A stretch of DNA of 53,414 nucleotides from a virus (IMGVR_UViG_3300014208_000053:1-53414), one strand, 5' to 3'; counted from the first letter of the stretch, positions 6,031 to 40,038 are shown. Notes: generated by a model from the sequence alone, not told the origin. A program made the numbers and translations.

Positions 6031-6037
6031 GTGCCCC

Positions 6038-6065
6038 TTCCGTGAGGCCCCTAACAGCGTAACCT
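6038..6065 (+). promoter_or_regulatory. Putative sigma70-type promoter for a leaderless tape-measure mRNA
   Basis: TTCCGT-16 nt-TAACCT, ATG 7 nt downstream, no SD. Confidence 0.5.
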
Positions 6066-6072
6066 GTGGGCC

Positions 6073-9302: not shown

Positions 9303-9308
9303 GATTCC

Positions 9309-10400
9309 ATGACCGATCTCGCCATCTCGCCTGTCGTCACGCCGCTGACGGCGACCAAGTCCGCCCCGATGGCCATCACCTTCGCGGCCAACGCGTCGGG
9401 CATCAACCCGCCCTTCACCTACGCTTGGGACTTCGGCGACGGCAACTCCTCGACCAATGAGACCGGCAGCCACAGCTACGTCGCCGGCGGCACCTACACC
9501 ATCCGTCTCGTCGTCACCGATTCGCTGGGACGCACGGCGTCGTGGTCTGAGAGCTACGTCGTCAACCCGGTGCTCGTCCCCAACTTCTCCGCCGTCGTCA
9601 CGATCGGTGTGGGCGGCACGAACAGCACGCAGTTCACCGACGCCACCGCTGGTGGCACTGCGCCATACACCTGGGCGTGGGAGTTCGGCGACGGCCAGAC
9701 CTCGACGGCGCAGAATCCGTCGCACGTCTATGCCGAGGCCGGCTCGTACATCGCCAAGCTGACCGTGACCGACACCGATGGCCACGTCGCTTCGGTGCGC
9801 GCGATGGTCAACGTCACCAACCCGATGACGGTGGCGATGACGGCCGAGCCTGTGCTGGGCTCCGAGCCGCTGCTGGTGAACTTCACCGCCTCGGCTGCCA
9901 ACGGCACGGCGCCGTACACCTACACCTGGGACTTCGGCGACAACACCTCCGGCACCGGCCCGGTCGTTTCGCACACCTTCGACTCCGACGGCGTCATCGA
10001 GGTCAAGGTCCACGTCGTCGATGCCCTCGGCCACGACACCAGCAACCGCATCGTGGTCGACATTCTGCAGCTGCTGGCCGTCGATCCTGACCGCATCCCC
10101 GAGAAGGGCACCGTTCCCTTCCCTGTCACCTTCTATTCCAACGCCAACGGCGGCGAGCGGCCCTACAAGTACCTCTGGGACTTCGCCGACGGCTCGACCT
10201 CGACCGAAGAGAACCCGGTGCACAACTTCCTCATTCCGGGCTACTACAACGTGCGCCTCACCATCATCGATGGCTTGGGTCGCCAGGCGACCAACGTCGT
10301 CGCGGTGGACGCCGGCCGGGCGCCGACGATCGTCTCGACCACGGTGTTCCTGAACTACATGACGATCTACGGCATCCCCTTCACCATCTTCGGGCAGTGA
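9309..10400 (+). CDS. PKD-repeat protein (4 PKD domains), putative virion surface protein
   Basis: Four Y.W(D/E)F(G/A)D repeats with 'NPSHVY..G.Y...L.VTD' signatures. Confidence 0.9.
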   Translation: MTDLAISPVVTPLTATKSAPMAITFAANASGINPPFTYAWDFGDGNSSTNETGSHSYVAGGTYTIRLVVTDSLGRTASWSESYVVNPVLVPNFSAVVTIGVGGTNSTQFTDATAGGTAPYTWAWEFGDGQTSTAQNPSHVYAEAGSYIAKLTVTDTDGHVASVRAMVNVTNPMTVAMTAEPVLGSEPLLVNFTASAANGTAPYTYTWDFGDNTSGTGPVVSHTFDSDGVIEVKVHVVDALGHDTSNRIVVDILQLLAVDPDRIPEKGTVPFPVTFYSNANGGERPYKYLWDFADGSTSTEENPVHNFLIPGYYNVRLTIIDGLGRQATNVVAVDAGRAPTIVSTTVFLNYMTIYGIPFTIFGQ

Positions 10401-10403
10401 GCC

Positions 10404-21198: not shown

Positions 21199-21981
21199 AT
21201 GACCTTCCGCCCTCTCCCCTCTGCCCCGATGTCAGAGACGCCTGCCCAGAAGGACACGCGCCTCTACGAGGAATGGCACGATGCCCCGACGGGTTGGACC
21301 AAGGACCAGGCCTTCGATCGGCTGACGAAGAACCTCGAGGGCGCAGTCATGTCGGCGGTCAACACTTACCGGGCTGCCCCGGTGCCGACGCAGACCATGG
21401 AACTCGAGGCCAAGCGCCTCGCCGGGCAGGCGATCAAGGACTGGGATCCGAAGGGAGGCATGCCCCTCGCCTCCTACATCGGAACCATGGTCCGCCAGCG
21501 TCTCTACCGCTGGGTCACCGCGCACCAGAACGTAGCGCGCATCCCCGAGGCTCAGGTCGGCCAGATCGGCCACTTCCAGCTCGCCATCAACGATCTCTCC
21601 AGCCGCTTCGGCCGCGAGCCGACAACCGATGAGATCGCCGAGCATATGTCGATCCACCCGAAGTACGTCAGCCGGCTGCGCCGCGCACTGCGCAGCGATC
21701 TCATCGCCAGCAACGCGATGGACGCTGAGGGCGACGAGGGATCGATGGCCGACAGCATCGAGGACATCCCGCATGACGTCGACTACGAGCGGGCGATGCT
21801 CGGCTATTACAGCCTGAATGAGCAGGAAAAGCACGTCTTCGACTACTCGCTCGGCGCGCACGGACAGCCCAAGCTGAAGCCCGGCGAGATCGCGGTGAAG
21901 CTGAAGCTCAGCCCGGCACGCATCAGCGCGCTGAAGGAATCCGTCGGCGCGAAGATCAAGCCGTACCTGCGGGCCGGCTGA
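21199..21981 (+). CDS. Sigma-70 family RNA polymerase sigma factor (regions 2, 3, 4)
   Basis: Region 2: AIKDWDPKGGMPLASYI..VRQ...VARIP. Region 3: FGREPTTDEIAEHM. Region 4 HTH: LNEQEKHVF...EIAVKLKLSPARIS. Confidence 0.85.
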   Translation: MTFRPLPSAPMSETPAQKDTRLYEEWHDAPTGWTKDQAFDRLTKNLEGAVMSAVNTYRAAPVPTQTMELEAKRLAGQAIKDWDPKGGMPLASYIGTMVRQRLYRWVTAHQNVARIPEAQVGQIGHFQLAINDLSSRFGREPTTDEIAEHMSIHPKYVSRLRRALRSDLIASNAMDAEGDEGSMADSIEDIPHDVDYERAMLGYYSLNEQEKHVFDYSLGAHGQPKLKPGEIAVKLKLSPARISALKESVGAKIKPYLRAG

Positions 21982-21982
21982 C

Positions 21983-24520
21983 ATGGCGTTCCTCGATCCG
22001 CTGGCCCAGAGCGACCTGCAAGGCTTCTCCGCGCTGCAGCAGGGAAGCGATGCCCTGCAGCGTCTCAGCGACAACGCGGCGCTGATCAACGGCTTCACCG
22101 ACACTGACGACCCGCAGGCCTTGATCGCGAGCATGGTCGGCGGCAGCGGGCTGACCGGCTGTCTCACCGAGCTGGTCACGGGCCTCGTGACCGCCCAGTA
22201 CGTCGGAGGCTACGGCGACTCGGCCTTCGGCGCCTACCTGCTCGACCTGCTCATCTCGCCCGTGGCCGAGTTCGGCAGCCTGCTTTCAGCGCTCTTCATC
22301 CCGGGCGGCAGCACGGTCCCTGACGACTTCGAGTTCTGGAGCGCTGCCAACCTGCAGAACATCGGGCAGGCCTTCCTGAATCCGTTCACATCACTGTGGA
22401 TGGGCCAGTTCAACGTGCTGGCCTCGTCCTTCGACGAGTTCGTTCGCGGCGTGTTCTGGGACAACAGCACGGACCAGACCGGCAACCAATCGCTGACGCA
22501 GCAGATCACCGATCGCGTCTCGCTCGCCGTGCACCAGCTGTTCCTCAGCGGCGAGAATGTCGTGGGCGGCATCGGCGGCATGCTGCTCTTCGCCATCTTC
22601 GAAGGCATCCCGGCCCTCGAGGCCGAGATCACCTACATCAAGAAGCTCAAGTCGTCGATGAACAAGTTGCTTGGCCAGGCGTGCAAGCTGCCGCCATCGA
22701 TGCTGCCCGGCCTGCCCAACGCGATCATCACCGAGCACCTGTGCCGCGCGCTCAAGGAGCTGGAGGTCGTCCGCAACACGCTCTCGCAGAATAACAAGCT
22801 CGACATCGGCCGGTTCAACACCGCGACATCCGAGACCTGCCTGGCGAAGGACTCGATCTACGACCCATCGAAGGGTCTCGACGGCAACCTCGCGGGCCAG
22901 TTCAAGAACCTGTTCGGGCTCGACGACAAGCAGTTCAACACCCTGCGTGATTTCAGCAAAGGCAAGGTCGGCGCGCTCATGCCCGATCCGCGCTTCCGGC
23001 TGCAGACGATCCTCGTGCAGAAGTACAACGGACTGATCCAGGCGACCGATCCGCAGCTCCTGAAGTTCCACGAGAACATGAAGGAGTTCAACGCCACCTT
23101 GGATGGCTTCGGCGCGCTCTACCTGGGCGACGTGTTCTCCCGCATCGTCGAGCTGCTGCGCCGGCAGATCCAGATGATCAAGACCCAGCTCGATGCTGAC
23201 GCGGCTGGATTTTCTGTCCAATCCGACGTGCAGAGCATCGCTGAGCTGCGGCCCTATGGCTCGGTGCGCCAGCAGTGGGATTACAACAACAACTGGGGTC
23301 CGGGCGTCGGCGGCACGACAGGCCTGCCCACGCAGAAGCCCTACGACCAGACCTACCAGCAGGCCAAGGCCAACACCGTCAACCAGTACGGCAATCCCAA
23401 CGCCAGCGCGCAGCAGGTCGACGAGGCGTTCAATCGCTCAGTGAATCAGAAGCCCGTCGATCCGTCGAACCCCAACTACAACTCCGACGGCTCGGTGCGC
23501 GTCGCCACCACGCAGACCGGCGCGCTGATGGTCAGCACCGACGTGCAGAGCCAGGGCTCGGACATCTACTCCTACATCTCCACCCAGGCCAATGCCTACG
23601 TCATCCTGACGAGCATGTGCTTCATCATGGGTCAGATGCAGAAGCTGTTCAAAGGCGTCCAGTCGATCCTGTCGGCCAACGACCGGGTCATGCTCGCGAT
23701 CAAGAAGTTCGTCTATAGCTATGGCGTGAACGCCTGCGGCGACCCGTACGGCGCCAATGACATCAACGCCAACGTGCTGAAGTTCATGCAGGTCGCCGAG
23801 GCCCGCCTGGCCGGCAGCGTGCGGACGAACCAGCCGGTGCAGGACGCCTACAAGGGCGTGGTCCTCGCCTGCGACAAGCACGAAAAGTTCCTGCTCTGCA
23901 TGCGCCGGGAGATCAACAACTTCCTCAAGTACCTGGGCCTGAGCACCCAGCTGATCGCAGCGCTGATGAACCTGATCGCTGTGGCGCGCACGGTCTACCA
24001 GCTCTACCAGGCGCTCGCCTCGCTCGACCTCCTGGGCATGTTCAAGTTCCGCTGGTCCCTCAGCCGGGCCAACATCCTCGACGTGCTGCTGAAGGCCCTG
24101 CAGTGCCTGGTCCTCCAGTGCAACAATCCCTTCATGTCCTCGCTGGCTCGCATGGCCGCGGCCCGGTTCCAGAGCCAGAAGAACAACGAGCGATCGAAGG
24201 CCGTCACCATGGCGATGATGGACGAGGGTCCGTCGGTGGCCCAGAAGATGGGCAACAACAACAGGCTGCAGGCCCTGTTCAAGCTGATCCAGGCCATCCA
24301 GAAGCTGACCTCGATCAACATCGACGACCTGTGCTCGATCAGCACCAAGGCAGTGCCCTCGTCGAAGACCCAGTCCGCGCAGTCCGCTGCGATCCAGGCT
24401 GCGACGGCCGCCGCGGCCGGCACCACCGGCATCGACACCCAGTACGACAAGCTGATCCTCGAGAACCAGCAGACCCAGCAGGCCGCCGGCGCGGCACAGC
24501 CCTTCACCGCGTTCGCCTGA
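21983..24520 (+). CDS. Large helical hypothetical protein
   Basis: 845 aa; clear coding bias; hydrophobic helices and a Q/N-rich insertion; no family recognised. Confidence 0.75.
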   Translation: MAFLDPLAQSDLQGFSALQQGSDALQRLSDNAALINGFTDTDDPQALIASMVGGSGLTGCLTELVTGLVTAQYVGGYGDSAFGAYLLDLLISPVAEFGSLLSALFIPGGSTVPDDFEFWSAANLQNIGQAFLNPFTSLWMGQFNVLASSFDEFVRGVFWDNSTDQTGNQSLTQQITDRVSLAVHQLFLSGENVVGGIGGMLLFAIFEGIPALEAEITYIKKLKSSMNKLLGQACKLPPSMLPGLPNAIITEHLCRALKELEVVRNTLSQNNKLDIGRFNTATSETCLAKDSIYDPSKGLDGNLAGQFKNLFGLDDKQFNTLRDFSKGKVGALMPDPRFRLQTILVQKYNGLIQATDPQLLKFHENMKEFNATLDGFGALYLGDVFSRIVELLRRQIQMIKTQLDADAAGFSVQSDVQSIAELRPYGSVRQQWDYNNNWGPGVGGTTGLPTQKPYDQTYQQAKANTVNQYGNPNASAQQVDEAFNRSVNQKPVDPSNPNYNSDGSVRVATTQTGALMVSTDVQSQGSDIYSYISTQANAYVILTSMCFIMGQMQKLFKGVQSILSANDRVMLAIKKFVYSYGVNACGDPYGANDINANVLKFMQVAEARLAGSVRTNQPVQDAYKGVVLACDKHEKFLLCMRREINNFLKYLGLSTQLIAALMNLIAVARTVYQLYQALASLDLLGMFKFRWSLSRANILDVLLKALQCLVLQCNNPFMSSLARMAAARFQSQKNNERSKAVTMAMMDEGPSVAQKMGNNNRLQALFKLIQAIQKLTSINIDDLCSISTKAVPSSKTQSAQSAAIQAATAAAAGTTGIDTQYDKLILENQQTQQAAGAAQPFTAFA

Positions 24521-24562: not shown

Positions 24563-27010
24563 ATGCCCGTCGATCCCGATGCCTTCAAGGGCACCTCCTT
24601 CGCAGCCGTAAATCGCGAACTGGTCGGTCGTACCATCGAATCGGTGGCGAAGATCTTCCCGATGAAGACCGAGGATGGGAAGCTCGAGGTCCGAGCGACC
24701 AACGTCAAGATCGATGACACCAAGCACGACCCCTACGACCTGAACGCCTGGCAGGCGGCCCGGGAGCAGGGCGGCTCGGTGACGGCGCCGGTGACGGCCG
24801 ATCTGGCCCTCTACCGCGACGGCAAGCGGGTGCAGACCCGCAGCAACGCCAAGATCGGTGAGCTGCCGCTCATGGGGTCCACCGGCACCTTCATGGTCGG
24901 CGGCAACGACTGGTTCACGCCCTTCGCCCAGTTCCGCCTCAAGCCCGGCATCTACTCGCGACAGAAGGTCAACGGCGAGTACGAGTCGTTCATGCCCATG
25001 CAGGGCGCCTCGATGACGGTGTGGATGGACCCGGCCAAGGGCCAGTTCAAGCTCTCCCACGGCTCGACCAACGTCGGGCTCTACCCGGTGCTCAAGGCCC
25101 TGGGCAAGACCGATGAAGAGATCATCCAGGCCTGGGGCGGCGACCAGCGGGCGCGCGAGCTGCTCGAGCAGAACAAGGTCGACCGCGGCGAAAAGGACAT
25201 CGACAAGCTGTTCGAATCCGTCTTCCACCTGAAGCAGAACCGCGACCTGCTCAAGGGTGGCGTCATCAAGGTCGATGAGAGCCTTTCCGGTGTCGACCAG
25301 GCGGGCAAGATCACCGCGCTCAAGCAGTGGATCGATTCAAAGCACCTCGACCCCTACGTCACCAAGAAGACCGTCGGCCAGCCGATCGACAAGCCGAACG
25401 AGACTGCCTTCATGCTGGCCTCGCGGAAGATCCTCGACGTGCAGCGCGGCGACGCCGACCCTGACATCCGCGACTCGCCCCATTTCAAGACGGCCCACAA
25501 CATCGCCGACCTGATGGCTGAGCGTGTCGAGCGCAACGCCTGGCGCATGCAGAAGAAGCTCTTCCAGCGCCTGCGGAAGGGCGACGACGTCACCCTCGGC
25601 GAAGCCATGGGTCCTGCCTTCCTCGAACCGCTCACCACCGGGTTCTTCGGCGGCGCCGGCGGCATCGAAGGTGGCATGGCCCACACGGCTGAGGGCGCGA
25701 ACCCGCTGGCCCTGGCCAGCGAGCAGTCCAAGACCACGTTCATGGGGCCTGGCGGCATCATGGACATGCACGCGGTTTCGAAGGAGTCGCGCCTGTTCCA
25801 GCCTGGTGCGCTGGGCTTCATCGATCCAGTCCACAGCCCGGAAGGTGCTGCCGTCGGACTGAACGTCCACGCGGTGGCCAACGCCCGCAAGTCGGGCAAC
25901 ACCCTCGTCGCCCGGTTCATCCCGGTGCTCAACGGCCGGGCCAAGTGGGACCAGCGCAGCGTGCTCTCCGTCGAGGACGCGAACGACACCACGATCGGAT
26001 ACCCCGAGTTCTGGGATGAGAAGACTGGCCTGCCGGTCGACCCCTACACCGGCGAGAAGAACCCGCAGACGGTGCGTGCGAACCGGGACAACGAGATCCT
26101 CGAGGTTCACCCGACCGAGGTGAAGTACCTGTTGCCCAAGGGCACCGACGCCTTCGACCATGTCGGCAACGCTGCCGGCTTCTTCGCCAACACGCACCCC
26201 AACCGCGGCATGATGGCTGGCAAGCACATCACCCAGGCCCTGCCGCTGGTCTACCGCGAGCTGCCCCTGTCGACGCTGAAGACCAGCGATGGCAAGGATG
26301 TGATGACTGTGCTCGGTCACGGCAGCACTGTGAGCGCCCGTAACCCCGGCACCGTGACCAAGATCACCGAGAACGGCATCTGGGTCGATGGCGTGAAGCA
26401 CGCGATCTTCGACCGCTACCCGATGCAGGCCAAGGTGTCGATCGACCACACCCCGGTGGTGAAGGTCGGCGACGTCGTCAAGAAGGGCGATCTGCTGGCG
26501 GACTCGAACTACACCAAGGATGGCCAGCTCGCCCTCGGCGTGAACCTCCGCTCGGCCTACATCCCGTGGAAGAACGCGTCGAACTACGAGGACGCGATCG
26601 TCATCAGCGAGACCGCTGCGAAGAAGCTCACCAGCGACCACACCCACCGCCATGAGCTGATCCTCGACGAGGGAATCAAGGTCGACCCCAAGCTGTTCAT
26701 TGCCCAGTTCCCGACCCTGCTGACCCGTGAGATGGTCGGAAAGCTCGGCACTGACGGTGTGGTCCAGGAAGGCCAGGAGGTCAAGCCCGGCGACGTGCTG
26801 ATCGCTGCCGTCCGTGCCCGCAAGTACGACGAGTACGACCGCTCAGCGAAGAACCTCTCCAGCATCCACAAGATGCTCGAGCGGCCGTGGCTCGACGCGA
26901 GCGTGAAGTGGGATGAGGACTACATCGGCAAGGTCAACCGCATCGTGCGGTCGCCGGACAAGATCGAGATCCACATCCAGACCGCTGAGCCCATGCGCGT
27001 CGGCGACTAG
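24563..27010 (+). CDS. rpoB: Multisubunit-type RNA polymerase beta subunit, N-terminal part (ends at an in-frame TAG)
   Basis: GELPLMGSTGTF, IDPVHSPEG..VGL, RGMMAG....QALPL, LALGVNL..AYIPW...NYEDAIVISE; ends MRVGD*. Confidence 0.92.
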   Translation: MPVDPDAFKGTSFAAVNRELVGRTIESVAKIFPMKTEDGKLEVRATNVKIDDTKHDPYDLNAWQAAREQGGSVTAPVTADLALYRDGKRVQTRSNAKIGELPLMGSTGTFMVGGNDWFTPFAQFRLKPGIYSRQKVNGEYESFMPMQGASMTVWMDPAKGQFKLSHGSTNVGLYPVLKALGKTDEEIIQAWGGDQRARELLEQNKVDRGEKDIDKLFESVFHLKQNRDLLKGGVIKVDESLSGVDQAGKITALKQWIDSKHLDPYVTKKTVGQPIDKPNETAFMLASRKILDVQRGDADPDIRDSPHFKTAHNIADLMAERVERNAWRMQKKLFQRLRKGDDVTLGEAMGPAFLEPLTTGFFGGAGGIEGGMAHTAEGANPLALASEQSKTTFMGPGGIMDMHAVSKESRLFQPGALGFIDPVHSPEGAAVGLNVHAVANARKSGNTLVARFIPVLNGRAKWDQRSVLSVEDANDTTIGYPEFWDEKTGLPVDPYTGEKNPQTVRANRDNEILEVHPTEVKYLLPKGTDAFDHVGNAAGFFANTHPNRGMMAGKHITQALPLVYRELPLSTLKTSDGKDVMTVLGHGSTVSARNPGTVTKITENGIWVDGVKHAIFDRYPMQAKVSIDHTPVVKVGDVVKKGDLLADSNYTKDGQLALGVNLRSAYIPWKNASNYEDAIVISETAAKKLTSDHTHRHELILDEGIKVDPKLFIAQFPTLLTREMVGKLGTDGVVQEGQEVKPGDVLIAAVRARKYDEYDRSAKNLSSIHKMLERPWLDASVKWDEDYIGKVNRIVRSPDKIEIHIQTAEPMRVGD

Positions 27011-27016
27011 CTCTCG

Positions 27017-30000
27017 ATGGGATCAGCTGCCAAGGGCACGATCGCAGAGATCACCCCCGACCACGAGATGCCGACCGATGAGAAGGGCCGGCCGCTCGAG
27101 GTCATCTTCAACCCCCACGGCGTCTCCGGCCGCATCAACCCGTCGCAGACGCTCGAGCAGGCCGTCGGCAAGCTCGTGCGCGACCACGGGGTGAAGTTCG
27201 ACCACGTCAACTTCGGCGACAACAAGGTCGCCGATCGCGTGCAGGCCCTGCTCGATGAGCACAAGGTGAAGCACGAGGAACGGCTGTTCGATCCGGTCGA
27301 GGGCCGGCACATCGAGAACCCCGTTCCGGTCGGCTACAACTACGTCTACAAGCTCGATCACCCGGTGCGCAAGAAGTTCAGCGCCCGCACGCGTGACGGC
27401 TACACGATGGACGAGGCGCCGACGGCCGGCCGCGGCAAGGGCGGCCAGTCCTTCGACGGCCTGCAGACCTACGCCCTGCTGGGCCATAACGCCCACGCCA
27501 TCCTCGGCGAGAGCATGGGCGTGCGTGGGGCGAAGAACGACGACTACTGGGTGGCCTACCAGGCGGGCGAGAAGCCGCCGGCGCCGAAGGTGCCGTTCGT
27601 CTTCGAGAAGCTGCGCGCGATGATGGCGGCCTCGGGTATCGACTCGCAGCAGCACGGCAACGCTCTGCACTTCATGCCGATGACCGACGCGAACACGTTG
27701 AAGCGTTCGAACGGCGAGATCCAGAAGGCGAGCCTGGTGCGCGCGAAGGACCTTGCTGAAGAGAAGGGCGGGCTGTTCGACGTCGCCACCACCGGCGGCC
27801 TCAAGGGCGACAAGTGGTCGCACATCGACCTCGGCCGCAAGGTGCCGCATCCGCTCTACGAGAAGGTCATCAAGGATCTCCTCGACCTGAAGACCGCCGA
27901 CTACCTCGGGGTCATCGGCCACACCCGGCACTACAACGCCGAGACCGGCGAGTTCAGCGACCAGCCTGGTTCGAACACCACGACCGGTGAGGCCGCTTTC
28001 CGCGCAATGTTGGACTTTGACCCTGCCGAGCGGTTCAAGGAGGTGCAGAAGAAGGCTCGCACCGCCAGCGGGTCAGACCTCAACCGGCTCAACCGGGCGG
28101 CGCGCTACCTGAAGGGGCTGCAGGACGTGCGGCAGAAGCCGTTCGACGCCTACATGATTTCTCAGGTACCAGTTATCCCTCCGATGTACCGCCCGGTCAT
28201 TGAGCAGCGGAATGGCGGCCTGCGGGTCGCGGACTCGAACCTGCTCTACCGCGACCTGATCCTCACCCGCGACACCCTGCAGAAGGGCGAACAGGAAGGC
28301 TCCCTTTCAACCCAGGACCTCGCGAAGGCCCGGGTGAGCCTCTACGACGCCTACGGGGCTTTGGTCGGCGTAGGGAAAAGCCTGACGCATCGCCGGGACG
28401 CCGACCTGCGGGGCTTCGTCGACGTCATCAAGGGCAAGAACAACAAGGAGGGGCTGTTCCAGCAGCAGCTCTCCCGCCGGCGCAACGACTACACCGGCCG
28501 GTCGACCATCGAATCGGATGCTACCCTCGGCCCCGACGAGGCTGCCATCCCCGAAGACATGGCCTGGAAGATCTACCAGCCGGCCATCGTCCGGCGCCTG
28601 GCCCAGCTGGGCTGGAAGCCCGCCGACGCGATGCGCGAGGTCGAGCGCAAAGGCCTCATCGCCCGCAACGCTCTCGATGAGGAGCTGCGCACTCGGCCCA
28701 TCCTGCTCAACCGCGCGCCGTCGCTGCACCGCTGGAGCGTGTTGGCAGCGATGCCGAAGATCCACAGCGGCAAGGAAGTTCGCATCAGCCCGTTCGTGCT
28801 CGGCCCGTTCAACGCCGACATGGATGGCGACACGATGTCGGTGTTCGCGCCGCTGAGCGACAAGGGCAAGCGTGAGGCCCACGACCTCCTGCCGTCGCGG
28901 AACCTGTGGTACGACAAGGACCGCAGCCTCGCCTTCGCCGTCGACAAGGACGTCATCACCGGTCTGTTCGCCCTGACCCGCCGCGGGGTCAACAGCGGCA
29001 AGACCTACCCGACGCGCCAGGCCGCCCTCGACGCCTACAAGAACAACAAGGACGGGCTGCGCATGGACAGCCTCGTCATGATCGATGACGAGAAGAATCA
29101 GAACCTGCAGGCCGTCGGCTGGATGATCTTCGAGGGCATCGTTCCCGTGCGGTTCCTCAGCGGCATCGCGCCGCCGATCGACGGTAAGAAGCTCGCCACC
29201 ATCCTCGATCGCATCGCGAAGGAATCGCCGGCCGATTTCAACAACCTGGGGCGCAAGCTCCAGTCGGCCGGCTTCGCTTTCGCGGCCCGTGCCGGCGGCA
29301 TCGGCGGCACGGTGCAGGAGCTGGCGATCGACCGCACCAAGATCAACGCGCTGCTCGGTCAGATCGATCGCGCTGTGAAGCAGGGCAAGGGCCTCGACGA
29401 GAAGCGAAAGCTCGCGCTCGAGACCTTTGCGAAGGTGAAGCCCGAGCTCGACTCGATCATCTCCGACCACCTCGACACCATCGGCCTCGGCGGCTCGGTG
29501 TTCCTGGCTGCCAAGCCGTCGAGCAAGCTCGGCATGGATTCCTACCGCCAGATGGTCGCCAGCCCGGTGATGGTCACCGACGCCCGCGACCGTGCTATCC
29601 CGTCGGTGATCAAGTCGAGCTACGGTGGCGGCATGCTGCTGAGCGACTACATCATGGCCACGCCCGGCGCGCGGTCGGGCATGGTCGACAAGGGTCTCTC
29701 CGTGGCTGGCCCTGGCTTCCTCACCAAGGAGCTGGCGGGCAACCTCGGCCCCGTGCGAATCGAGATCAAAGACTGTGGCACCCAGGAAGGTATCCAGATC
29801 CCGCTCGATCCGCCAGAAGGCGTGAAGCAGCACGACGCTGATCTGCTCGATCGTCACCTGCTGCACGACATCCCGGGCACGAGCTTCAAGCGCAACGACG
29901 TGGTCACGCCCGAGATGCTCGCGAAGATGCGCGATGCGAAGGTGACCAGCGTCATGGTCCGCAGCCCGATGACTTGCGAAGCGGATTCGCCGCCCTGCCA

Positions 30001-30925
30001 GATGTGCGCGGGCCGTACGCCCGACGGCAAGGTCCACCCGATCGGCGCCAACATCGGCTACAACTACGGCATGACGATCGGCGAACGGTCGACCCAGCTG
30101 ACGCTGAAGAAGTTCCATTCGGGTGGAACCGTTGGGCAGGGTTCCAACCTCGCCGACGGCTTCGCTCGGCTGCGCGAGCTGCTCGCTGTCCCAGAGACCG
30201 TGAAGGGCCAGGGAACGCTTGCTGACTCAACCGGTATGGTGACCTCGGTGAAGACCGCGCCCCAGGGCGGCCACTATATCCACATCCGGCCCGAAGGTCA
30301 GTCGCCTGGCCGCGCGGATTCCATCGAGCACTATGTTCTGCCTGGCCGCAACGTCGCGGTCGTCGAGGGTGAGAAGGTGAAGCGCGGTGATCGGCTCTCC
30401 GATGGCAGCTACCGCCCGCAGGAGATCGCAGAGAAGCAGGGCCTGCTCGCTGCTCAGTCCTACGTCGTCGATGAGATGCGGAAGGCCTTCCAGCAGGCCG
30501 GTGCGATCGTGCGCAAGCCGGTGCTCGAGGTCGCAGTCGCCGCGATGATGCGCTTCATGCGGATCACCAACGATGGCGGCGAGAAGGATCTGATGGTCGG
30601 TCAGATTCTGGCCGAGCAGGCCTTCAAGGCTCGGCAGCTGAAGAACCCCAAGATCCAGGGAACGCCCGAGCTTCCGGGGTTGTCACACGTTCCGCTGGTG
30701 CGTTCGAACGACATGCTCGAGCGCCTGAACTTCCAGCGCCTCGAGGACACCCTGCGCGAGATCCCGGCCCAGGGCGGCGTCAGCGATCTGAGTGGTGCGA
30801 AGTCACCGATCCCGGGCTTCGCCTACGGCGCGGCCTTCCGTCCCGGGCAGGCCAGCTTCGAGCTGACGAAGGACCGAATCCCGCAACAGGATTCGGCCTT
30901 CAACCGGCTCGCTCATTTTACCTAG
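27017..30925 (+). CDS. rpoC: RNA polymerase beta C-terminus fused to beta' (catalytic NADMDGD)
   Basis: beta motifs: NPHGVSGRIN, YKLDH...KFSAR, GGQSF. beta' motifs: GGLFD, VPVIPPMYRP, LLNRAPSLHR, NADMDGD (28811-28831), GARSGMVD bridge helix, IGERSTQLTLKKFHSGG trigger loop. Confidence 0.95.
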   Translation: MGSAAKGTIAEITPDHEMPTDEKGRPLEVIFNPHGVSGRINPSQTLEQAVGKLVRDHGVKFDHVNFGDNKVADRVQALLDEHKVKHEERLFDPVEGRHIENPVPVGYNYVYKLDHPVRKKFSARTRDGYTMDEAPTAGRGKGGQSFDGLQTYALLGHNAHAILGESMGVRGAKNDDYWVAYQAGEKPPAPKVPFVFEKLRAMMAASGIDSQQHGNALHFMPMTDANTLKRSNGEIQKASLVRAKDLAEEKGGLFDVATTGGLKGDKWSHIDLGRKVPHPLYEKVIKDLLDLKTADYLGVIGHTRHYNAETGEFSDQPGSNTTTGEAAFRAMLDFDPAERFKEVQKKARTASGSDLNRLNRAARYLKGLQDVRQKPFDAYMISQVPVIPPMYRPVIEQRNGGLRVADSNLLYRDLILTRDTLQKGEQEGSLSTQDLAKARVSLYDAYGALVGVGKSLTHRRDADLRGFVDVIKGKNNKEGLFQQQLSRRRNDYTGRSTIESDATLGPDEAAIPEDMAWKIYQPAIVRRLAQLGWKPADAMREVERKGLIARNALDEELRTRPILLNRAPSLHRWSVLAAMPKIHSGKEVRISPFVLGPFNADMDGDTMSVFAPLSDKGKREAHDLLPSRNLWYDKDRSLAFAVDKDVITGLFALTRRGVNSGKTYPTRQAALDAYKNNKDGLRMDSLVMIDDEKNQNLQAVGWMIFEGIVPVRFLSGIAPPIDGKKLATILDRIAKESPADFNNLGRKLQSAGFAFAARAGGIGGTVQELAIDRTKINALLGQIDRAVKQGKGLDEKRKLALETFAKVKPELDSIISDHLDTIGLGGSVFLAAKPSSKLGMDSYRQMVASPVMVTDARDRAIPSVIKSSYGGGMLLSDYIMATPGARSGMVDKGLSVAGPGFLTKELAGNLGPVRIEIKDCGTQEGIQIPLDPPEGVKQHDADLLDRHLLHDIPGTSFKRNDVVTPEMLAKMRDAKVTSVMVRSPMTCEADSPPCQMCAGRTPDGKVHPIGANIGYNYGMTIGERSTQLTLKKFHSGGTVGQGSNLADGFARLRELLAVPETVKGQGTLADSTGMVTSVKTAPQGGHYIHIRPEGQSPGRADSIEHYVLPGRNVAVVEGEKVKRGDRLSDGSYRPQEIAEKQGLLAAQSYVVDEMRKAFQQAGAIVRKPVLEVAVAAMMRFMRITNDGGEKDLMVGQILAEQAFKARQLKNPKIQGTPELPGLSHVPLVRSNDMLERLNFQRLEDTLREIPAQGGVSDLSGAKSPIPGFAYGAAFRPGQASFELTKDRIPQQDSAFNRLAHFT

Positions 30926-31350
30926 AGCGCCTGCAGAACGCGGATGGCCTCTTCGCAGCTCGCCGTCAGCGAGAGGCGCACGACCGTCGGCTTCTCGCCC
31001 TGGTTCGGCAGGATGTACTTCAGCTGCATCTTGAGCGTCGCCACCTGGCTCGCTGACAGGGTGAACTCGGTGGTCTGCTGCCGCCACTTCTCGGCCATCT
31101 GCTCGATGCCGATGCGCTGGGCGTCGTTCGGGTCTAGGCCTTCGACCGACCGGAGGGCTGCCGGGATGTCGACCTTCTTGTCCCCGACCTCGAGGATACA
31201 CGGGAGACTCCGCAAGGTCTTGACGAGATCGCAGCCCGTCAGGAACAGCTCGGGGGTGATCAGCGGCCCGGTTTCGGTGGCGATGGCGTTCAGCACCAGG
31301 CGTGCAGCGTTGGTGATCTTGAACGTGGCGGAATCAGAATCAGTGCTCAT
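30922..31350 (-). CDS. Hypothetical protein
   Basis: 142 aa; TAGCTT 6 nt before ATG; convergent CTAG overlap with the RNAP stop. Confidence 0.7.
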   Translation of the reverse strand: MSTDSDSATFKITNAARLVLNAIATETGPLITPELFLTGCDLVKTLRSLPCILEVGDKKVDIPAALRSVEGLDPNDAQRIGIEQMAEKWRQQTTEFTLSASQVATLKMQLKYILPNQGEKPTVVRLSLTASCEEAIRVLQAL

Positions 31351-31443
31351 GCCGCGAAGCTATCGGCGCTCGAGGTAAAAAGAAGCCACCCCTTGCGGGG
31401 CGTCTCCTCTCCCGACACCTTCCTCAGGTTGTCGTTGCTGCTC

Positions 31444-32355
31444 TCAGAGCAGCTGCAGCCGGCGGTTGCCCCCAGCGTTACGGGCGAACTCGCTCGCCTT
31501 GCGGCGATTGTCCGCCAGGCAGTCGAGGACCTCCCGGTGCGCCCGGAACGGCTTGCTCGTCCTGCCGCCACACACGACGGTCTGGTCAGCGGCGTTCAGC
31601 TCGCGCTGGCGCCGCTCCGTCGCGACCTCGGCGCTCTCGGCTGGGGTGCGATACATGGGGGACATGCGAATCCACACCATGCCATCGATGCTCAAGCACC
31701 CGGCGGGCCGGGGCTTGGCCTTGACGTGTTCGCCGTTGAGGACGAGCCACGCCTTGGCTTCAGCGACCGCGTCGGTGTGCAGCCCGAGGTGGGCGGCTTT
31801 CCGGGCGATCATCCGCTGCGTGTGCTCCGCGGCAGCACGACGTTCGGCCGAGTTCGGCTCGCTCAGCACGCGGTGCTTGAGACGGACCTCGTCAGTGCCC
31901 CAGCCGACCTCTCCGAGGCGGCCGGTCAGTTCGATCAGGTCCAGCGCCCACTTCGGTGGACGCAGGGTGCCCATCCGACGCAACACCGGAACCTGGCCGG
32001 CACAGCCAGCCATCACGGCCTGGTGGATGGTGCGCCATTCGTTACCGCTGAGGATCTGCAGCCGACCGCTACGTTCAGCCGCCAGGTCTTCGTGGGCGAA
32101 AGCGCTGGCGATGCGCAAGGCGCGACAGCACACCGACGCGGCGTGCAACTCCAGGGCCTGGCCCTGGAACGTGATGTCTCCGAGGAGGTGGTGGCATACC
32201 TCCATCAGGTGGGTCTTGGCTTCCGCCAAGCCCGGGGTGACCGCCATGGAGGGCAGTCGTTCGACGCTCGCGACCTGGGCCACCACGTCGGTGATGTTCT
32301 CACCGAGACGAGGGGCGAAGAGACGGATGTCGCGGGCGAAGTTGAGAGTGGTCAT
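31444..32355 (-). CDS. Hypothetical protein
   Basis: 303 aa, GGAG SD upstream, Arg-rich; no family recognised. Confidence 0.6.
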   Translation of the reverse strand: MTTLNFARDIRLFAPRLGENITDVVAQVASVERLPSMAVTPGLAEAKTHLMEVCHHLLGDITFQGQALELHAASVCCRALRIASAFAHEDLAAERSGRLQILSGNEWRTIHQAVMAGCAGQVPVLRRMGTLRPPKWALDLIELTGRLGEVGWGTDEVRLKHRVLSEPNSAERRAAAEHTQRMIARKAAHLGLHTDAVAEAKAWLVLNGEHVKAKPRPAGCLSIDGMVWIRMSPMYRTPAESAEVATERRQRELNAADQTVVCGGRTSKPFRAHREVLDCLADNRRKASEFARNAGGNRRLQLL

Positions 32356-32476
32356 GGAAATGCTCCGTGGGTAAGTCAGGCAATATGCCTGACGGGTTAG
32401 TGCGTCAAAGAACTCGACTGATGTTACAGATCACCGATGCCATCCATGGCATCCCTTTCGACTTGAAACGTTGCCC

Positions 32477-37390: not shown

Positions 37391-38275
37391 ATGGTCCCAC
37401 ACCGCCGGATTCTTCAGGCAGTCGCCCTTGTGGCAATGGCTCGTGCGGATGGCCCGAAGCATGCTGAAAGCCTGTTGGCAGCACTGGATACCCGCTTTCC
37501 TTGTGCCCTGCAGGACTTCACGGCGGCTGAGATTCAGGGCCGGCTCCCGGCTGCCTTGGACGCCTGGTTCGTTACCACCGACATGCGGTCGACCATGGAC
37601 TACCGGCCCCTGTTCCAGGCCGCGACCATGCTTGGGCTGCGGGACATCATCACCGTCGGCCCATCTGGGCCGACCGTCCTTCTCCCCACTGGCATCCGGC
37701 GCCTGCGGGAGAATCAGGCGATTCGGACTATGCTCGAGACGAGCATCCTGTGCGAGATCGACTACGAGACGATCTGTGCCGACCTGAAGCAGATGTATGG
37801 CTGCGTCCTCGAGGAAGTCGATGTGCGCCGCTACGGGGAGCTGTTCGTTGACCGGGAGTACCTCGAGGGTGCTGCCTGGGAGCGCTACATGCTCTGCATC
37901 GGCAACGAAGAGGCTGTGTTCCGCCGTGGCCTGATCGGGCAGCCCAAGGACTTCGTCCGCTGGCGCCTGGGCGTGCCTGTGTCGCTGAACTCCGAGGCCG
38001 TGCTGGACCGCCTGATGAGCGATGCCTATTACACCGAGCGCCTGATCAAGCGCACGGTGGGCAACCTCGGTCTGAACATGACCAAGGACGAGCTGGCGCG
38101 CGTCAAGCTCGAGCGCGATACCATGTTCAAGGCGATGGAGATGCGCGGCAAGCTGCGCGATGCCTCAGGCGGCGACAGCGCCAAGAAGGCCCTGGCGACG
38201 CTCGCCGGCGTGGTCGCGAAGTACGAGTCACAGGACGCCCTGCTGACCAAGGATGAACTGGCCGCGATGCCATGA
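37391..38275 (+). CDS. Hypothetical protein, candidate terminase small subunit
   Basis: 294 aa, helical, overlaps the terminase large subunit start (ATGA). Function inferred from position only. Confidence 0.5.
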   Translation: MVPHRRILQAVALVAMARADGPKHAESLLAALDTRFPCALQDFTAAEIQGRLPAALDAWFVTTDMRSTMDYRPLFQAATMLGLRDIITVGPSGPTVLLPTGIRRLRENQAIRTMLETSILCEIDYETICADLKQMYGCVLEEVDVRRYGELFVDREYLEGAAWERYMLCIGNEEAVFRRGLIGQPKDFVRWRLGVPVSLNSEAVLDRLMSDAYYTERLIKRTVGNLGLNMTKDELARVKLERDTMFKAMEMRGKLRDASGGDSAKKALATLAGVVAKYESQDALLTKDELAAMP

Positions 38276-40038
38276 TGGAAAATACCGTCCGGTGCATCGA
38301 GGCCACCCCGTTCCAGCTCGCGCAGGATCTGCTCTGTCTCGGCGGCGAGCGCTTCAACCTCACGGACTACCCCTACCTCGAAGCCGTCTACAACACCCGC
38401 GCGTCGCGTGTGGGGTTGTTCACCGGGCGTCAGGTCGCCAAGAGTACCACGCTCGCCTCGAAGCTGGTGATCAACGGCGTCTGCCACCCCGGCAGCGTGC
38501 AGGTCTACGTCGCGCCGCTGCAGGAGCAGGCGATGGTATTCGCCCAGCAGCGCTTGCGTGACTTCATCTCTGGCAGCCCGATCATCCAGGACTGCTTCTT
38601 CGACGGCCCGGGCAAGGTCGATCAGGTGCTGCGCCGCGTCTTCAACGCTGGCGGCTCGATGATCACGCTGGGCTACGCCCAGCGCACGGCTGACCGTCTG
38701 CGTGGTCAGTCGGTAAAAGACGGCAAGATGCACACGGTCCTCGACCCGCGCACGGGTGAGCTGATCGAGGTTGGCGGCGCCCAGCTGACCTTCGATGAGA
38801 TCCAGGACATCATGCCGGACATCTATCCGGTCGTCGAAGAAATGGCCTTCCGTGCCAAGGCCCCGCGTTTCTGGTACTGCGGCACGCCGAAGTCGATGAA
38901 CAATCCGATGGAGGCCTTCCGGGCGCGCTCCACCGGCGCCGAGTGGGCTGTCCGCTGCACCAACATGGGGTGCAAGAAGTGGAACCACTCTTGGACTGAA
39001 CGAAACATCGGCGATCACGGCGTTATCTGCGAGTTCTGCGGAGTCCCGCTGAATACCAACGCCAACGGCCGATGGGTCGTGGCACGCAAGATGGATCTCG
39101 AGAAGGGCCGGCACGCGTCGGTCACGATGGAGACCTATCGCGTCCCGCAGCTGATCGTGAAGCCGGTCATGGATCGGCGTCAGAAGTGGATGGAGCTGCT
39201 CGACAAGCTGCGGAACTACTCGACCGAGCGGTTCCGCAATGAGGTGCTCGGCCTGCCCCACGATTCGGGCTCCGTTCCGGTAACGATCGAGCAGCTCAAA
39301 GCCTGCTGTAACCCTGACCGCAAGAACGAGGTTCCGAACCCGCGCAAGAACCGCTACCCGCCACTGGTCATGGGCGTCGACTGGGCTTTCAACGGCGAGA
39401 ACAGCTACACCTTCGTGACCATCGGCGGCTTCAACCCGTTCCCGGGCCGGTTCGACGTCTACTACTGGAAGATCTTCAAGGGTGTTGAGACCGACCCCCT
39501 GTACCAGATCGACTGGATCGTGAAGGCCGCCTCCTACGCCGGCGTCCAGCTGCTCGGCTGCGACTGGGGCTGCGGCCAGGTCCAGAACCTGCAGCTGATC
39601 AACCGCCTCGGTGACGACCGCGTCATCCAGATGTGGCACACCGGCATGCAGGGGACCGGCGCCGGCCGCGCCGCCCGCGTGAAGTGGGATCCGAAGGTCC
39701 GCAAGTGGCACCTGGCCCGCACCCGGGTGCTCACCGACACCTTCGAGATGGTCCGCACGAAGCAGATCACCTTCCCGCGCTCTGACGAGTGCCAGGAGCT
39801 GTTCGACCACTTCATGGCTGTCAGCCTGGAGTACAACGACAAGACCAACGTCCAGCGGTATGTGAATATCAAGCCCGACGATGGTCTCCATTCGGTCACC
39901 TATTCGACGATCGCCGGCGAGTTCCTGGTCCGGGGTGATTTCAAGGGTCACATGGGCAGCACGACCCAGAGCGAGGCCGCTGCGGCCGACATCTGGAACG
40001 AGACCCCGGACGAGCGAACTGACTCCCTTTACCGATGA
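38272..40038 (+). CDS. terL: Terminase large subunit
   Basis: Walker A TGRQVAKST, Walker B LTFDEIQD, coupling motif GTP, CxxxxC/CxxC Zn site, nuclease MGVDW and PDDGLHS. Confidence 0.92.
   Translation: MMENTVRCIEATPFQLAQDLLCLGGERFNLTDYPYLEAVYNTRASRVGLFTGRQVAKSTTLASKLVINGVCHPGSVQVYVAPLQEQAMVFAQQRLRDFISGSPIIQDCFFDGPGKVDQVLRRVFNAGGSMITLGYAQRTADRLRGQSVKDGKMHTVLDPRTGELIEVGGAQLTFDEIQDIMPDIYPVVEEMAFRAKAPRFWYCGTPKSMNNPMEAFRARSTGAEWAVRCTNMGCKKWNHSWTERNIGDHGVICEFCGVPLNTNANGRWVVARKMDLEKGRHASVTMETYRVPQLIVKPVMDRRQKWMELLDKLRNYSTERFRNEVLGLPHDSGSVPVTIEQLKACCNPDRKNEVPNPRKNRYPPLVMGVDWAFNGENSYTFVTIGGFNPFPGRFDVYYWKIFKGVETDPLYQIDWIVKAASYAGVQLLGCDWGCGQVQNLQLINRLGDDRVIQMWHTGMQGTGAGRAARVKWDPKVRKWHLARTRVLTDTFEMVRTKQITFPRSDECQELFDHFMAVSLEYNDKTNVQRYVNIKPDDGLHSVTYSTIAGEFLVRGDFKGHMGSTTQSEAAAADIWNETPDERTDSLYR

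Follow-up and report, generated by a model that had tools for sequence, protein, structure and literature searches.

Two described groups of phage enzymes resemble the one reported here. According to Weinheimer and Aylward (2020; PMC7481178), mReC, the multimeric-RNAP-encoding Caudovirales (RNAP, RNA polymerase), comprises uncultured tailed-phage contigs, some longer than 200 kb, whose beta and beta' homologues are recognisable by cellular profiles, carry an NADxDGD motif and form an RNAP clade apart from cellular homologues. The phiKZ- and AR9-type phages have two-barrel RNAPs related to cellular beta and beta' and lacking alpha and omega, of which one set is packed in virions and serves early transcription; reviews describe these enzymes as four or five polypeptides, far more divergent in sequence, in two paralogous sets and without a sigma homologue (PMC7598289, PMC7824862, PMC13282480).

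We analysed a 53,414-nucleotide stretch of viral DNA (the window) together with its genome copy, a closed phage genome of ~200 kb whose first 158 bp match its last 158 bp at 98.7%. Like the mReC enzymes, the RNAP encoded here lies on an uncultured tailed-phage contig of that size, is recognisable in both its beta and beta' parts, has the NADxDGD motif and separates from cellular homologues, in this case 27 bacterial rows. It resembles the phiKZ- and AR9-type enzymes in its two-barrel kinship and in having no detectable alpha or omega; unlike them, it is one chain, present as one copy on the contig and accompanied by a recognisable sigma factor.

Layout of the single-chain polymerase gene

A single 2120-residue chain unites the two catalytic subunits of a bacterial-type RNAP, and the gene is whole in the organism. 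Translation of the window gives a frame of 2121 codons, final stop included, with no frame change (Table 1), and the genome copy (P0001) is uninterrupted, with a full product of 2120 aa. Pfam domains follow one another in the order Rpb2_3 and Rpb2_6 (beta), then Rpb1_1, Rpb1_2 and Rpb1_5 (beta'), the Rpb1_1 match being below its cut-off (28.5 vs 39.7 bits); this ordered set is what defines a bacterial-type two-barrel (multisubunit-type) RNAP. At E <= 1e-5, 193 solved chains match the protein, and it scores 381.6 against the NCBIfam rpoC model (cut-off 963.5) and 261.3 against rpoB (cut-off 896). The contig sits within the bin of a bacterial genome, and by BLASTP the beta of this bin matches residues 30-994 of the phage RNAP. 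The C-terminus of that beta aligns to residue ~1030-1036 and the N-terminus of the bin's beta' starts from the same point, with no linker between the two parts in this alignment. A first-pass annotation, made from the sequence alone, had read beta and then beta' motifs in order, with a junction near 27640-27670; Pfam and alignment recover all the motifs it named, and the aligned junction lies inside that interval.

All 14 aligned family members have the same four residues in the catalytic motif (D1419, D1421, G1422 and D1423) and the same lysines, K816 and K824, in the beta barrel, and the four cysteines of the second zinc site (C1738, C1805, C1812, C1815) are likewise invariant in the family alignment. 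The first-pass annotation was right about both the NADMDGD motif and the retained C-terminal zinc site, as it was about the loss of the beta' N-terminal zinc-binding cysteines: residues 60-91 of the bin's beta', a ribbon of 32 residues with four Cys, are absent from every one of the 14 members. The Arg-His pair of the beta active-site motif (GDK..GRHGNKG), kept in the bin's beta and in six of nine more distant aligned relatives, is lost in the subclade of the phage RNAP (5 of 14 aligned members lack it). Divergence is also seen in the counterpart of the beta region that in bacteria binds rifampicin and holds the resistance positions, which reads SEQSKTT in the phage RNAP vs THERRLS in the bin's beta.

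The enzyme had also been called minimised. This stands relative to the bin's bacterium, whose beta and beta' have 1253 and 1437 aa vs 2120 aa for the phage chain, the gap consisting mostly of two lineage-specific inserts and the zinc ribbon, all absent from the phage RNAP; the smallest cellular frames in the dataset are ~1066 aa (beta) and ~1193 aa (beta') measured stop to stop.

Table 1. Features of the polymerase locus, in window coordinates
Feature	Position	Strand	Basis or remark
Phage sigma-70-family factor, 260 aa	21199..21981	+	PHROG 351, Pfam Sigma70_r3, solved SigA/RpoS/RpoD chains
845-aa protein between sigma and RNAP	21983..24520	+	no family match
Single-chain beta-beta' RNAP gene	24563..30925	+	2120 codons plus stop; TAG at codon 816 in window record
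Beta-like part, residues ~1-1030	24563..27652	+	BLASTP, Pfam Rpb2_3 and Rpb2_6, alignment
Counterpart of bacterial rifampicin-binding beta region	25643..25756	+	alignment with bin's beta
Beta active-site motif GDKLSMGSAAKG	27002..27037	+	alignment
In-frame TAG, codon 816	27008..27010	+	window record only; AAG elsewhere
Beta/beta' junction, head to tail	27650..27670	+	alignment with bin's beta and beta'
Beta'-like part, residues ~1031-2120	27653..30922	+	Pfam, solved chains, alignment, NCBIfam
Site of deleted beta' N-terminal zinc ribbon (GGLFD...HIDL)	27767..27832	+	alignment
Clamp-helix region, residues 1212-1275	28196..28387	+	alignment to solved beta' chains; modelled phage-sigma docking site
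Catalytic motif NADMDGD	28811..28831	+	alignment
Second zinc site, Cys1738, 1805, 1812, 1815	29771..30013	+	alignment

A proposed sigma-directed phage polymerase

We think it likely, with a probability of about 0.7, that the single chain is the catalytic core of the RNAP of this ~200-kb tailed phage and that it is directed by sigma in the following way. The phage sigma, as suggested by complex modelling, would dock on the clamp helices of the single chain and direct the core to phage promoters, and phage transcription without the host core enzyme would thereby be made possible. The enzyme and its sigma may, as the cultured sister phage Arash suggests by analogy, travel in the virion and start early transcription, and the covalent link between beta and beta' may take over the assembly role of the alpha dimer.

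The predicted partner is encoded two genes upstream of the RNAP gene, in agreement with the earlier suggestion of an enzyme working with its own sigma. Its Sigma70_r3 match (E 2.9e-9, 37.3 bits vs a cut-off of 25.3) is the sole one on the contig; region 4 is matched weakly by Pfam (16.2 bits vs 24.1), no Pfam match to sigma region 2 was found on the contig, and every NCBIfam sigma model scores the protein far below its cut-off. Residues 77-215 nevertheless align with residues 173-308 of solved SigA, and 61 relatives were found. The 845-aa protein encoded between the two genes has 12 relatives; PHROG, Pfam and NCBIfam gave no family match for it and its fold model was too poor to use. A search for a phage-specific promoter motif found none. 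When sigma was modelled in complex with RNAP residues 1031-1430, the score was 0.72 vs 0.02 for the best control, passing a mark that 58 of 80 solved complexes attained, as did 2 of 110 mismatched pairs; at least 36% of contacts are shared between runs, the partner pLDDT is at least 66, and the modelled interface joins RNAP residues 1212-1275 to sigma residues 36-80 and 108-116. Since sigma on the clamp helices is an already solved textbook pair, this pass shows likeness and may reflect memory of the known structures.

It is possible, though on balance we find it unlikely, that the single chain still needs a host alpha dimer, and perhaps omega, for its assembly or work. Cellular fused beta-beta' enzymes are known to keep alpha, and fusion by itself is thus no proof of the alpha-independence that the first-pass annotation had thought possible. 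Such fusions do exist: frames of 2504-2800 aa occur in 11 of the loci examined, whose MAGs bear the labels Omnitrophota, Vermiphilus, Pseudomonadota and others, and two NCBIfam equivalogs are named beta/beta'. The first-pass annotation saw no alpha or omega gene in the window, and a six-frame Pfam search extended this to the whole ~200-kb contig (PF01000 and PF01192 at E <= 0.001, PF01193 at E <= 10), with profiles that would miss a very divergent alpha-like protein. Matches to the three profiles are confined to C30 and C33, two contigs of the bin, whose bacterium has both alpha and omega. Against a need for alpha stands the precedent of the phiKZ- and AR9-type enzymes, which work without alpha or omega (PMC7598289). 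An enzyme injected with the DNA, as hinted at by the Arash data (PMC10585845), should also act at once; this is a weak point, as host alpha could still join it.

A further alternative, which we judge rather doubtful, is that the phage sigma redirects the host core RNAP and that the phage RNAP uses another initiation factor or none. Jumbo phages lacking an RNAP often carry sigma homologues thought to serve the host enzyme, according to two reviews (PMC13282480, PMC7824862), and the complex model is unable to distinguish phage clamp helices from those of the host. The sigma gene, however, is the second one upstream of the RNAP gene, and a relative (L002) whose RNAP is 55% identical has kept the order sigma, ~800-aa protein, RNAP. 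Relatives of sigma and of the RNAP also recur together, in that the longest contigs are equally long in nine sigma-relative/RNAP-relative pairs. Finally, Arash particles contain both proteins: among the 116 detected, RNAP Gp206 was the most detected (3516 spectra), with 1210 spectra for Gp216 and 467 for sigma Gp10, although the authors caution that proteins abundant during infection may be contaminants of particle preparations (PMC10585845).

The in-frame TAG and the origin of the contig

The first-pass annotation had described one open frame of 2120 codons. The organism does have such a frame, whereas the letters of the window do not, a TAG there having been missed: at position 27008 the genome copy has A, as have contigs from two public runs. 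Under table 11 the frame falls into two ORFs in the window, 24563-27010 (815 aa) and 27017-30925 (1302 aa). Window and genome copy disagree at 25 positions, among them 27008 (T vs A), where the codon of the genome copy is AAG (Lys); the contigs of the two runs, which come from two studies and may themselves be the source of the analysed DNA, have A at depths of 10.7 and 20.8. The TAG stands in place of Lys816 of the GDK motif, which all 14 aligned relatives and the bin's beta have, and two relatives (L001 and L002) carry uninterrupted RNAP frames of 2119 and 2102 aa. The stop at 27008 belongs to the record of the window, and the gene of the organism is intact.

It seems improbable that the TAG is instead a genuine minority variant, whether an amber mutant or a decaying copy. 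Two further internal differences between window and genome do look like strain variation (a missense N/H change at 40999 and a change at 5736, synonymous in its likely frame), and if the base were real in some genomes, their RNAP copies would be defective, with a stop at the catalytic Lys. The contigs of the two runs, though contigs drop rare variants, both read A and lend the variant no support, and the window ends in ~90 bases of artefactual poly-C missing from the genome copy, which shows that the record does carry errors. TAG is an ordinary stop on the contig, ending 33 of 215 crude gene calls, and a tRNA search found none in the window and a single tRNA-Leu on the whole contig, giving no hint of TAG read-through.

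We give very little credence to a real stop that divides the enzyme into an 815-aa N-terminal beta polypeptide and a 1302-aa one that joins the remainder of beta to beta', restarting at the ATG at 27017. The two ORFs do share one frame, with this ATG six bases past the stop, and phiKZ- and AR9-type phages normally have split large subunits (PMC7598289). Yet the genome copy and both runs read AAG, the stop falls on the Lys that all 14 relatives and the bin's beta share, the Met at 27017 is an internal residue conserved across the subclade (LSM[GAS]S), no Shine-Dalgarno-like purine run was seen by eye ahead of it, and none of the 120 relatives listed suggests a break at codon 816, the frames of L001 and L002 being uninterrupted.

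Neither a cellular rpoBC gene carried by a bacterial contig nor a recently captured host gene is a credible reading, although the contig (G+C 0.635) sits in a bacterial bin of similar composition: genes matching terminase, Hoc-like, tail and protease families lie around the RNAP gene and the contig ends overlap, bearing out the earlier reading as phage-encoded, while C30 carries an rpoB and rpoC of the bin's own, just 24-29% identical to the phage RNAP, all 27 bacterial rows split from the phage family in both trees, the NCBIfam scores are one third or less of the cellular cut-offs, and no spacer-like matches were found between the phage contig and the rest of the bin.

The phage polymerase family and its known relatives

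Judged by sequence comparison, the RNAP is no one-off but belongs to a large, little-studied clade of environmental phages apart from bacterial RNAPs. Among 8000 proteins scored, 563 are relatives at E <= 1e-10; of the best 120 listed, 89 are single chains of 1900-2199 aa and 29 are longer than 2200 aa, mostly through intein-type inserts. The trees, drawn with 27 bacterial rows and leaving out archaea, eukaryotes and giant viruses, place 18 fused phage rows on one branch (SH-aLRT 100) and the bacteria on another (96) for beta', and separate 21 phage rows from the bacteria with support of 100 for beta. The family thus lies apart from the bacterial rows in both trees, the phylogenetic check that had been proposed at first pass.

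By the filters stated in the paper, this family is most likely mReC (Weinheimer and Aylward, 2020; PMC7481178). The phage RNAP lies on a tailed-phage contig, reaches the required 800 aa in both its beta and its beta' homologue, and has NADxDGD and a stop codon, as judged with Pfam and NCBIfam in place of the COG0085 and COG0086 profiles of the paper; the pieces into which the TAG splits the window frame, 815 and 1302 aa, would likewise satisfy the length filter. The main text does not state a one-protein beta/beta', uses 'fused' or 'fusion' for crAssphage only, leaves sigma unmentioned and names neither L001 nor L002. The terminase large subunit on the contig matches PHROG 675 and 2; the TerL family PF03237 gave no match there at E <= 0.01, nor did the major capsid protein family PF07068, for which the control was also silent in every genome. 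In the paper, PF07068 and PF03237 have matches in just 8 and 17 of 97 mReC contigs. The first-pass annotation had called the enzyme distinct, unless it should nest in an already described phage RNAP clade. Distinct was an overstatement, given a large public family, cultured sister phages and the fit to mReC, and because of that fit the nesting is probable: the RNAP is probably a further member of a phage clade already known and not a distinct kind of enzyme.

Cellular fused beta/beta' proteins (NCBIfam NF007172, NF011417) also join beta and then beta' in one chain, but they are 400-700 aa longer than the phage RNAP, which reaches 375.4 and 297.2 bits against fused models with cut-offs of 5372 and 4632. 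The five placed in our trees (L065, L067, L074, L080 and L097) branch within the bacterial side, and the cellular and phage fusions are thus independent events. Rhizobium phage RHph_TM30 (Kleczkowskaviridae) and Vibrio phage 1.031.O, with genomes of 150-208 kb, have a beta'-like protein ~25% identical over the middle, encoded, unlike that of the phage RNAP, by separate, unfused genes (1127 and 1263 aa). The two group together in the beta' tree (support 99) away from the fused family, in a placement that their long end branches (1.24 and 2.11) make unsure.

The cultured sisters are Salmonella phage Arash (OQ632216) and Vibrio phages D69, D181 and D148, which fall within the clade of the phage RNAP in the beta tree (support 100) and branch there outside the 18 fully fused rows (support 96). 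Arash gp206 (1525 aa) and the D69 CDS (4584 nt) comprise beta and, fused to it, the N-terminal portion of beta', which is cut once, its separate C-terminal piece of ~607-609 aa being encoded some kb downstream; the phage RNAP is uncut. The Arash enzyme is ~30% identical to it, and the ~181 kb Arash genome has a phage sigma too, with Gp10 encoded far from Gp206, unlike the close placement found here.

Reading frame and anatomy of the beta-beta' chain

The RNA polymerase gene occupies a single frame of 2121 codons including the final stop, with beta motifs followed by beta' motifs as the first-pass annotation had reported; that annotation missed an in-frame TAG, and the frame is not open in the window's record. 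The TAG, at codon 816, leaves two same-frame ORFs under translation table 11 (see table). Rpb2 domain 6 is divided between the two in Pfam, its first half lying after Rpb2 domain 3 on the first ORF and its second half ahead of Rpb1 domains 1 (a weak match), 2 and 5 on the second. Since the halves of Rpb2 domain 6 are found on both ORFs, the TAG lies inside a domain and not at a subunit boundary. The window corresponds to the minus strand of positions 53314-106727 of C1, the phage contig of the genome bin, and shows 25 mismatches to this genome copy: at 5736, 27008, 40999 and at 22 positions within its last ~90 bases. The mismatch at 40999 exchanges Asn and His in a + strand gene and that at 5736 is synonymous in the likely frame, while positions 53324-53414 form a poly-C tract with no counterpart in the genome copy. 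The window derives from another record of this phage, one of lower quality.

The genome copy has an A at 27008, giving AAG (Lys), and a six-frame search of it recovered an open 2123-aa frame with no internal stop. The A is also present in contigs from two public groundwater-metagenome runs belonging to two studies (depths 10.7 and 20.8), either of which may be the source of this DNA; as contigs lose rare variants, they are compatible with a minority T at this position. Lys816 is shared by all 14 aligned relatives and by the beta subunit of the bacterium in the same bin, the frames of two relatives on viral contigs, L001 and L002, are uninterrupted (2119 and 2102 aa, respectively), and the ATG six bases past the TAG encodes an internal Met conserved in the window's subclade. 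Recoding or read-through of the TAG was rejected: TAG is an ordinary stop on C1, where it closes 33 of the 215 genes in a crude call, and the tRNA set is empty in the window and consists of tRNA-Leu(gag) on C1. On all these grounds the gene is taken to be whole, and the TAG is, as far as the data go, a property of the record and not of the organism. For annotation, the record's stop is a one-base difference from the other copies and should not be taken as a split gene. All later analyses were based on the uninterrupted 2120-aa protein of the genome copy.

Aligned to the beta (1253 aa) and beta' (1437 aa) subunits of the bin's bacterium, the phage chain is 24-29% identical to them. The alignment with the end of beta runs out at residue ~1030-1036 and that with the start of beta' begins directly after it, which puts the junction at ~27650-27670, in agreement with the earlier placement near 27640-27670. 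Other details read from the sequence at the outset also hold: the N-terminal zinc ribbon of beta', a stretch of 32 residues with four Cys that was described as missing, is found in none of the 14 aligned relatives; all four Cys of the second, C-terminal zinc site, described as retained, are invariant in the family; and the catalytic motif is NADMDGD in the window's protein, with NADFDGD and other variants in relatives and the DxDGD triad invariant throughout. Four segments of at least 20 residues in the bin's subunits have no counterpart in the family (beta 204-232 and 859-980; beta' 60-91, which is the zinc ribbon, and 945-1121), and together they make up 360 of the ~570 residues by which the two subunits exceed the phage chain. 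The enzyme had been called minimised; it is indeed shorter than the bin's subunits, but only slightly under the cellular minimum, since cellular frames in the fetched loci go down to ~1066 aa for beta and ~1193 aa for beta', stop to stop.

In the region of beta that binds rifampicin in bacteria, the alignment sets SEQSKTT of the phage against THERRLS of the bin's beta, a stretch that includes positions 526 and 531, the commonest resistance sites in E. coli; the phage enzyme would thus be predicted to be insensitive to rifampicin. At residues 817-823 (27011-27031), in the beta active-site loop, 5 of the 14 aligned members, which make up the window's subclade, carry GDKLSMGSAAKG; GDK..GRHGNKG stands at this place in the bin's beta and most of the more distant family members, and its Arg-His pair is lost in the subclade. 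The Gly-Arg-His-Gly of this motif corresponds to residues 819-822 and its Asn to residue 823.

Features of the polymerase gene, its inserts in relatives and its surroundings (window positions unless C1 is named)
Feature	Position	Remarks
Hoc-like and tail proteins	9309-12767	
Sigma factor	21199-21978	260 aa; PHROG 351, Pfam Sigma70_r3
Protein between sigma and RNAP	21983-24520	845 aa; many invariant Cys; 12 close relatives
beta-beta' RNAP frame	24563-30925	
First ORF of the record	24563-27010	815 aa
In-frame TAG	27008-27010	codon 816
Second ORF of the record	27017-30925	1302 aa
Insert site 1	~25847	after residue ~429, following FIDPVHSPEG; 10 proteins
Insert site 2	~28831	residues ~1423-1426, within the catalytic DxDGD motif; 11 proteins
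Insert site 3	~30106	residues ~1848-1849, trigger-loop region; 5 proteins
Large terminase	38272-40035	
Head-maturation protease	45493-46875	
tRNA-Leu(gag)	C1 122388-122469	sole tRNA on C1, outside the window
Three consecutive very long frames	C1 126157-143590, + strand	1771, 1961 and 1533 aa; outside the window

Relatives, inserts and phylogeny

A search of a 5.8-billion-protein collection, with 8000 candidates scored, returned 563 proteins at E <= 1e-10. Among the best 120 of these 563, 89 are 1900-2199 aa long and 29 exceed 2200 aa, and many are encoded on contigs of 160-204 kb. Inserts of at least 100 aa (range 100-530 aa) are present in 28 of these 29 long proteins and recur at three sites, which are among the most conserved spots of the protein. 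Many of them contain Pfam families of the intein and LAGLIDADG type; no such insert is present in the window's copy.

Of 598 pattern matches in the GTDB species genomes, 406 proved to be relatives, and 79 loci were retained. Three of these resemble the phage family and come from MAGs with the labels Gemmataceae, Deltaproteobacteria and Aenigmatarchaeota; the other 76 are taken as probable cellular rpoB-rpoC, a label given to them as a group on 24-29% identity and ORF sizes. The relatives leave out three unannotated GenBank records of Staphylococcus/Enterococcus phages (at least 80% query coverage, 25-28% identity). The Gemmataceae-labelled MAG, on a 79-kb contig in a bacterial bin, carries a phage-type RNAP in the layout of Salmonella phage Arash and Vibrio phage D69, with frames at 2605-7086 (1494 aa, beta plus N-terminal beta') and 8711-12343 (1211 aa, C-terminal beta'). 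Single rpoB-rpoC frames of 2504-2800 aa occur in eleven of the fetched cellular loci (L024, L039, L055, L061, L063, L065, L067, L071, L074, L080 and L097), from MAGs labelled Omnitrophota, Vermiphilus, Pseudomonadota or 'bacterium'.

Trees were built on columns of family-derived profiles with a quick IQ-TREE run (LG+C20+F+G4 by PMSF, SH-aLRT only), from 14 of the 120 listed relatives, L001, L002, two further loci (L020 and L021), 26 of the 76 cellular loci, the bin's subunits and cultured phages; L021 and L099 are long rows, and both trees are unrooted and without an archaeal or eukaryotic outgroup. In the beta' tree (47 rows), 18 fused phage rows lie on one side of a branch with a support of 100 and 27 bacterial rows on one side of another (96), with Rhizobium phage RHph_TM30 and Vibrio phage 1.031.O grouped apart on long branches (99). 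In the beta tree (48 rows), 21 phage rows are separated from 27 bacteria (100), and a branch with a support of 96 sets off the 18 fully fused rows, with Arash, D69 and the Gemmataceae-MAG contig outside them. A phylogeny against cellular RNAPs, proposed as a check by the first-pass annotation, hence keeps the phage family separate from all 27 bacterial rows in both trees, and the subunits of the bin's bacterium are not particularly close to it. The cellular fused rpoBC frames (Omnitrophota, Vermiphilus, Pseudomonadota) fall within the bacterial side, which indicates that the phage fusion was an independent event; with eleven fused cellular loci, those in the trees lying within bacteria, beta-beta' fusion has also arisen several times in cells.

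Phage genome, sigma factor and neighbouring protein

The first and last 158 bp of C1 (200,168 bp) match at 98.7%, showing a closed or terminally redundant molecule, and C1 is a complete phage genome of ~200 kb, not a prophage, that was placed in a bacterial bin. The bin's bacterial rpoB, rpoC and rpoA are on one contig (C30) and omega on another (C33); C1 has no second RNAP. The window had been described as lacking alpha and omega genes, and the same is true of the whole of C1, on which the alpha N-terminal and omega families have zero matches (PF01193 tried to E <= 10). Two ORFs downstream of the polymerase gene (30944-31375 and 31393-32397) were considered as alpha- or omega-like partners and rejected, having no family match and being absent from the flanks of L001 and L002. 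A blastn comparison of the bin's other 121 contigs with C1 gave five short matches at chance level, no repeat array was seen around the two matches inspected between bin contigs and C1, and C1 is tied to the bin by G+C content only; 'host' in our comparisons means the bacterium of the same bin.

The sigma factor is the single Sigma70_r3 match on C1 (E 2.9e-9); its residues 77-215 match solved SigA, RpoS and RpoD chains, and many NCBIfam sigma models match it, all far below their cut-offs. The gene order sigma, ~800-aa protein, RNAP is kept in L002, whose RNAP is 55% identical. Nine of the 61 sigma relatives found have a longest contig as long as that of an RNAP relative, which suggests that relatives of the two proteins are on shared contigs. 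When sigma was modelled in complex with RNAP residues 1031-1430, the score was 0.72 versus 0.02 for the best control, a mark that 58 of 80 solved complexes and 2 of 110 mismatched pairs attain. Contact agreement between runs was at least 36%, and partner pLDDT at least 66. The modelled interface, sigma 36-80 and 108-116 on RNAP 1212-1275, corresponds to the textbook binding of the clamp helices by sigma region 2. The model shows likeness, which may stem from memorised solved structures, and does not tell a phage core from a host core. Enrichment of 7-mers in 92 upstream gaps of rough, crude gene calls yielded no usable promoter motif for the phage sigma, the best signal being a weak, C-rich word that occurred 6 times.

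The 845-aa protein between sigma and RNAP has no PHROG, Pfam or NCBIfam match, and its atlas feature matches, of at most 0.83, are to unnamed viral clusters. Its AlphaFold2 model, from 12 sequences, is all helical (mean pLDDT 48, pTM 0.32). Its role may be structural, or that of an accessory to the transcription module.

Proposed role and comparison with known systems

The gene, its frame, family, setting and synteny and the lack of a detectable alpha or omega are established here, and we infer activity, partnership with the sigma, independence of alpha, packaging and insensitivity to rifampicin. The polymerase is most likely the core of a two-protein phage transcription system, in which one beta-beta' chain and one phage sigma would make at least part of phage transcription independent of the host core. 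The enzyme may also be delivered in the virion. Particle preparations of Arash contain RNAP pieces and a sigma among 116 proteins, Gp206 being the most detected, and the authors give both packaging and carry-over as readings in the portions of their paper covered here (PMC10585845).

A tentative reading, to which we give some three chances in ten, is that the family is a self-sufficient, sigma-dependent holoenzyme of two proteins, the beta-beta' chain and the small sigma, lacking both alpha and omega, that it travels in the virion and is injected to initiate transcription, and that in the window's subclade its active site has been remodelled by the Arg-His loss. If true, this would be the simplest known enzyme still using the bacterial sigma mechanism. 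If active alone with sigma, the chain would provide a compact model for work on sigma-dependent initiation, a natural test of a covalent link as a substitute for the alpha platform and a probable route to host-independent, rifampicin-insensitive phage transcription.

The multimeric-RNAP-encoding Caudovirales (mReC) of Weinheimer and Aylward comprise 97 tailed-phage contigs, some of more than 200 kb, with beta and beta' forming a deep clade apart from cells; the window's protein passes the filters stated in the sections covered of that paper, the main text of which, in those sections, mentions neither fusion nor sigma for mReC (PMC7481178). The mReC marker families PF07068 and PF03237 have no match on C1, and the PF07068 control was silent in every genome. 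A single-chain beta-beta' phage RNAP, as first annotated, is right in kind, but the uniqueness implied by calling it 'distinct' was overstated: it is one more member of a large phage clade that has probably been named already. Reviews of jumbo-phage transcription deal, in the parts covered, with the split, sigma-less phiKZ/AR9 type and with sigma-only phages (PMC7598289, PMC7824862, PMC13282480). The mReC paper, these reviews and the P23-45 paper hold no description of the family's fused architecture, sigma or biochemistry, and a literature search for mReC follow-ups, fused phage rpoBC and fused multisubunit phage RNAP with sigma gave nothing further. Despite its probable earlier naming, we thus found no account of the clade's architecture and biochemistry in the portions of the literature covered.

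To our knowledge, the known phage relatives of cellular RNAPs are of two kinds, enzymes of many pieces without a sigma and divergent single chains. The phiKZ and AR9 enzymes consist of many pieces and have no sigma, whereas the window's family has one chain and a sigma; the crAss-like, YonO and P23-45 enzymes are single chains too divergent for direct comparison, whereas the window's family permits a residue-level alignment to the bacterial beta and beta' subunits. The family, which has neither an alpha nor an omega gene to accompany it, is intermediate between the split, sigma-less and the divergent single-chain phage RNAPs.
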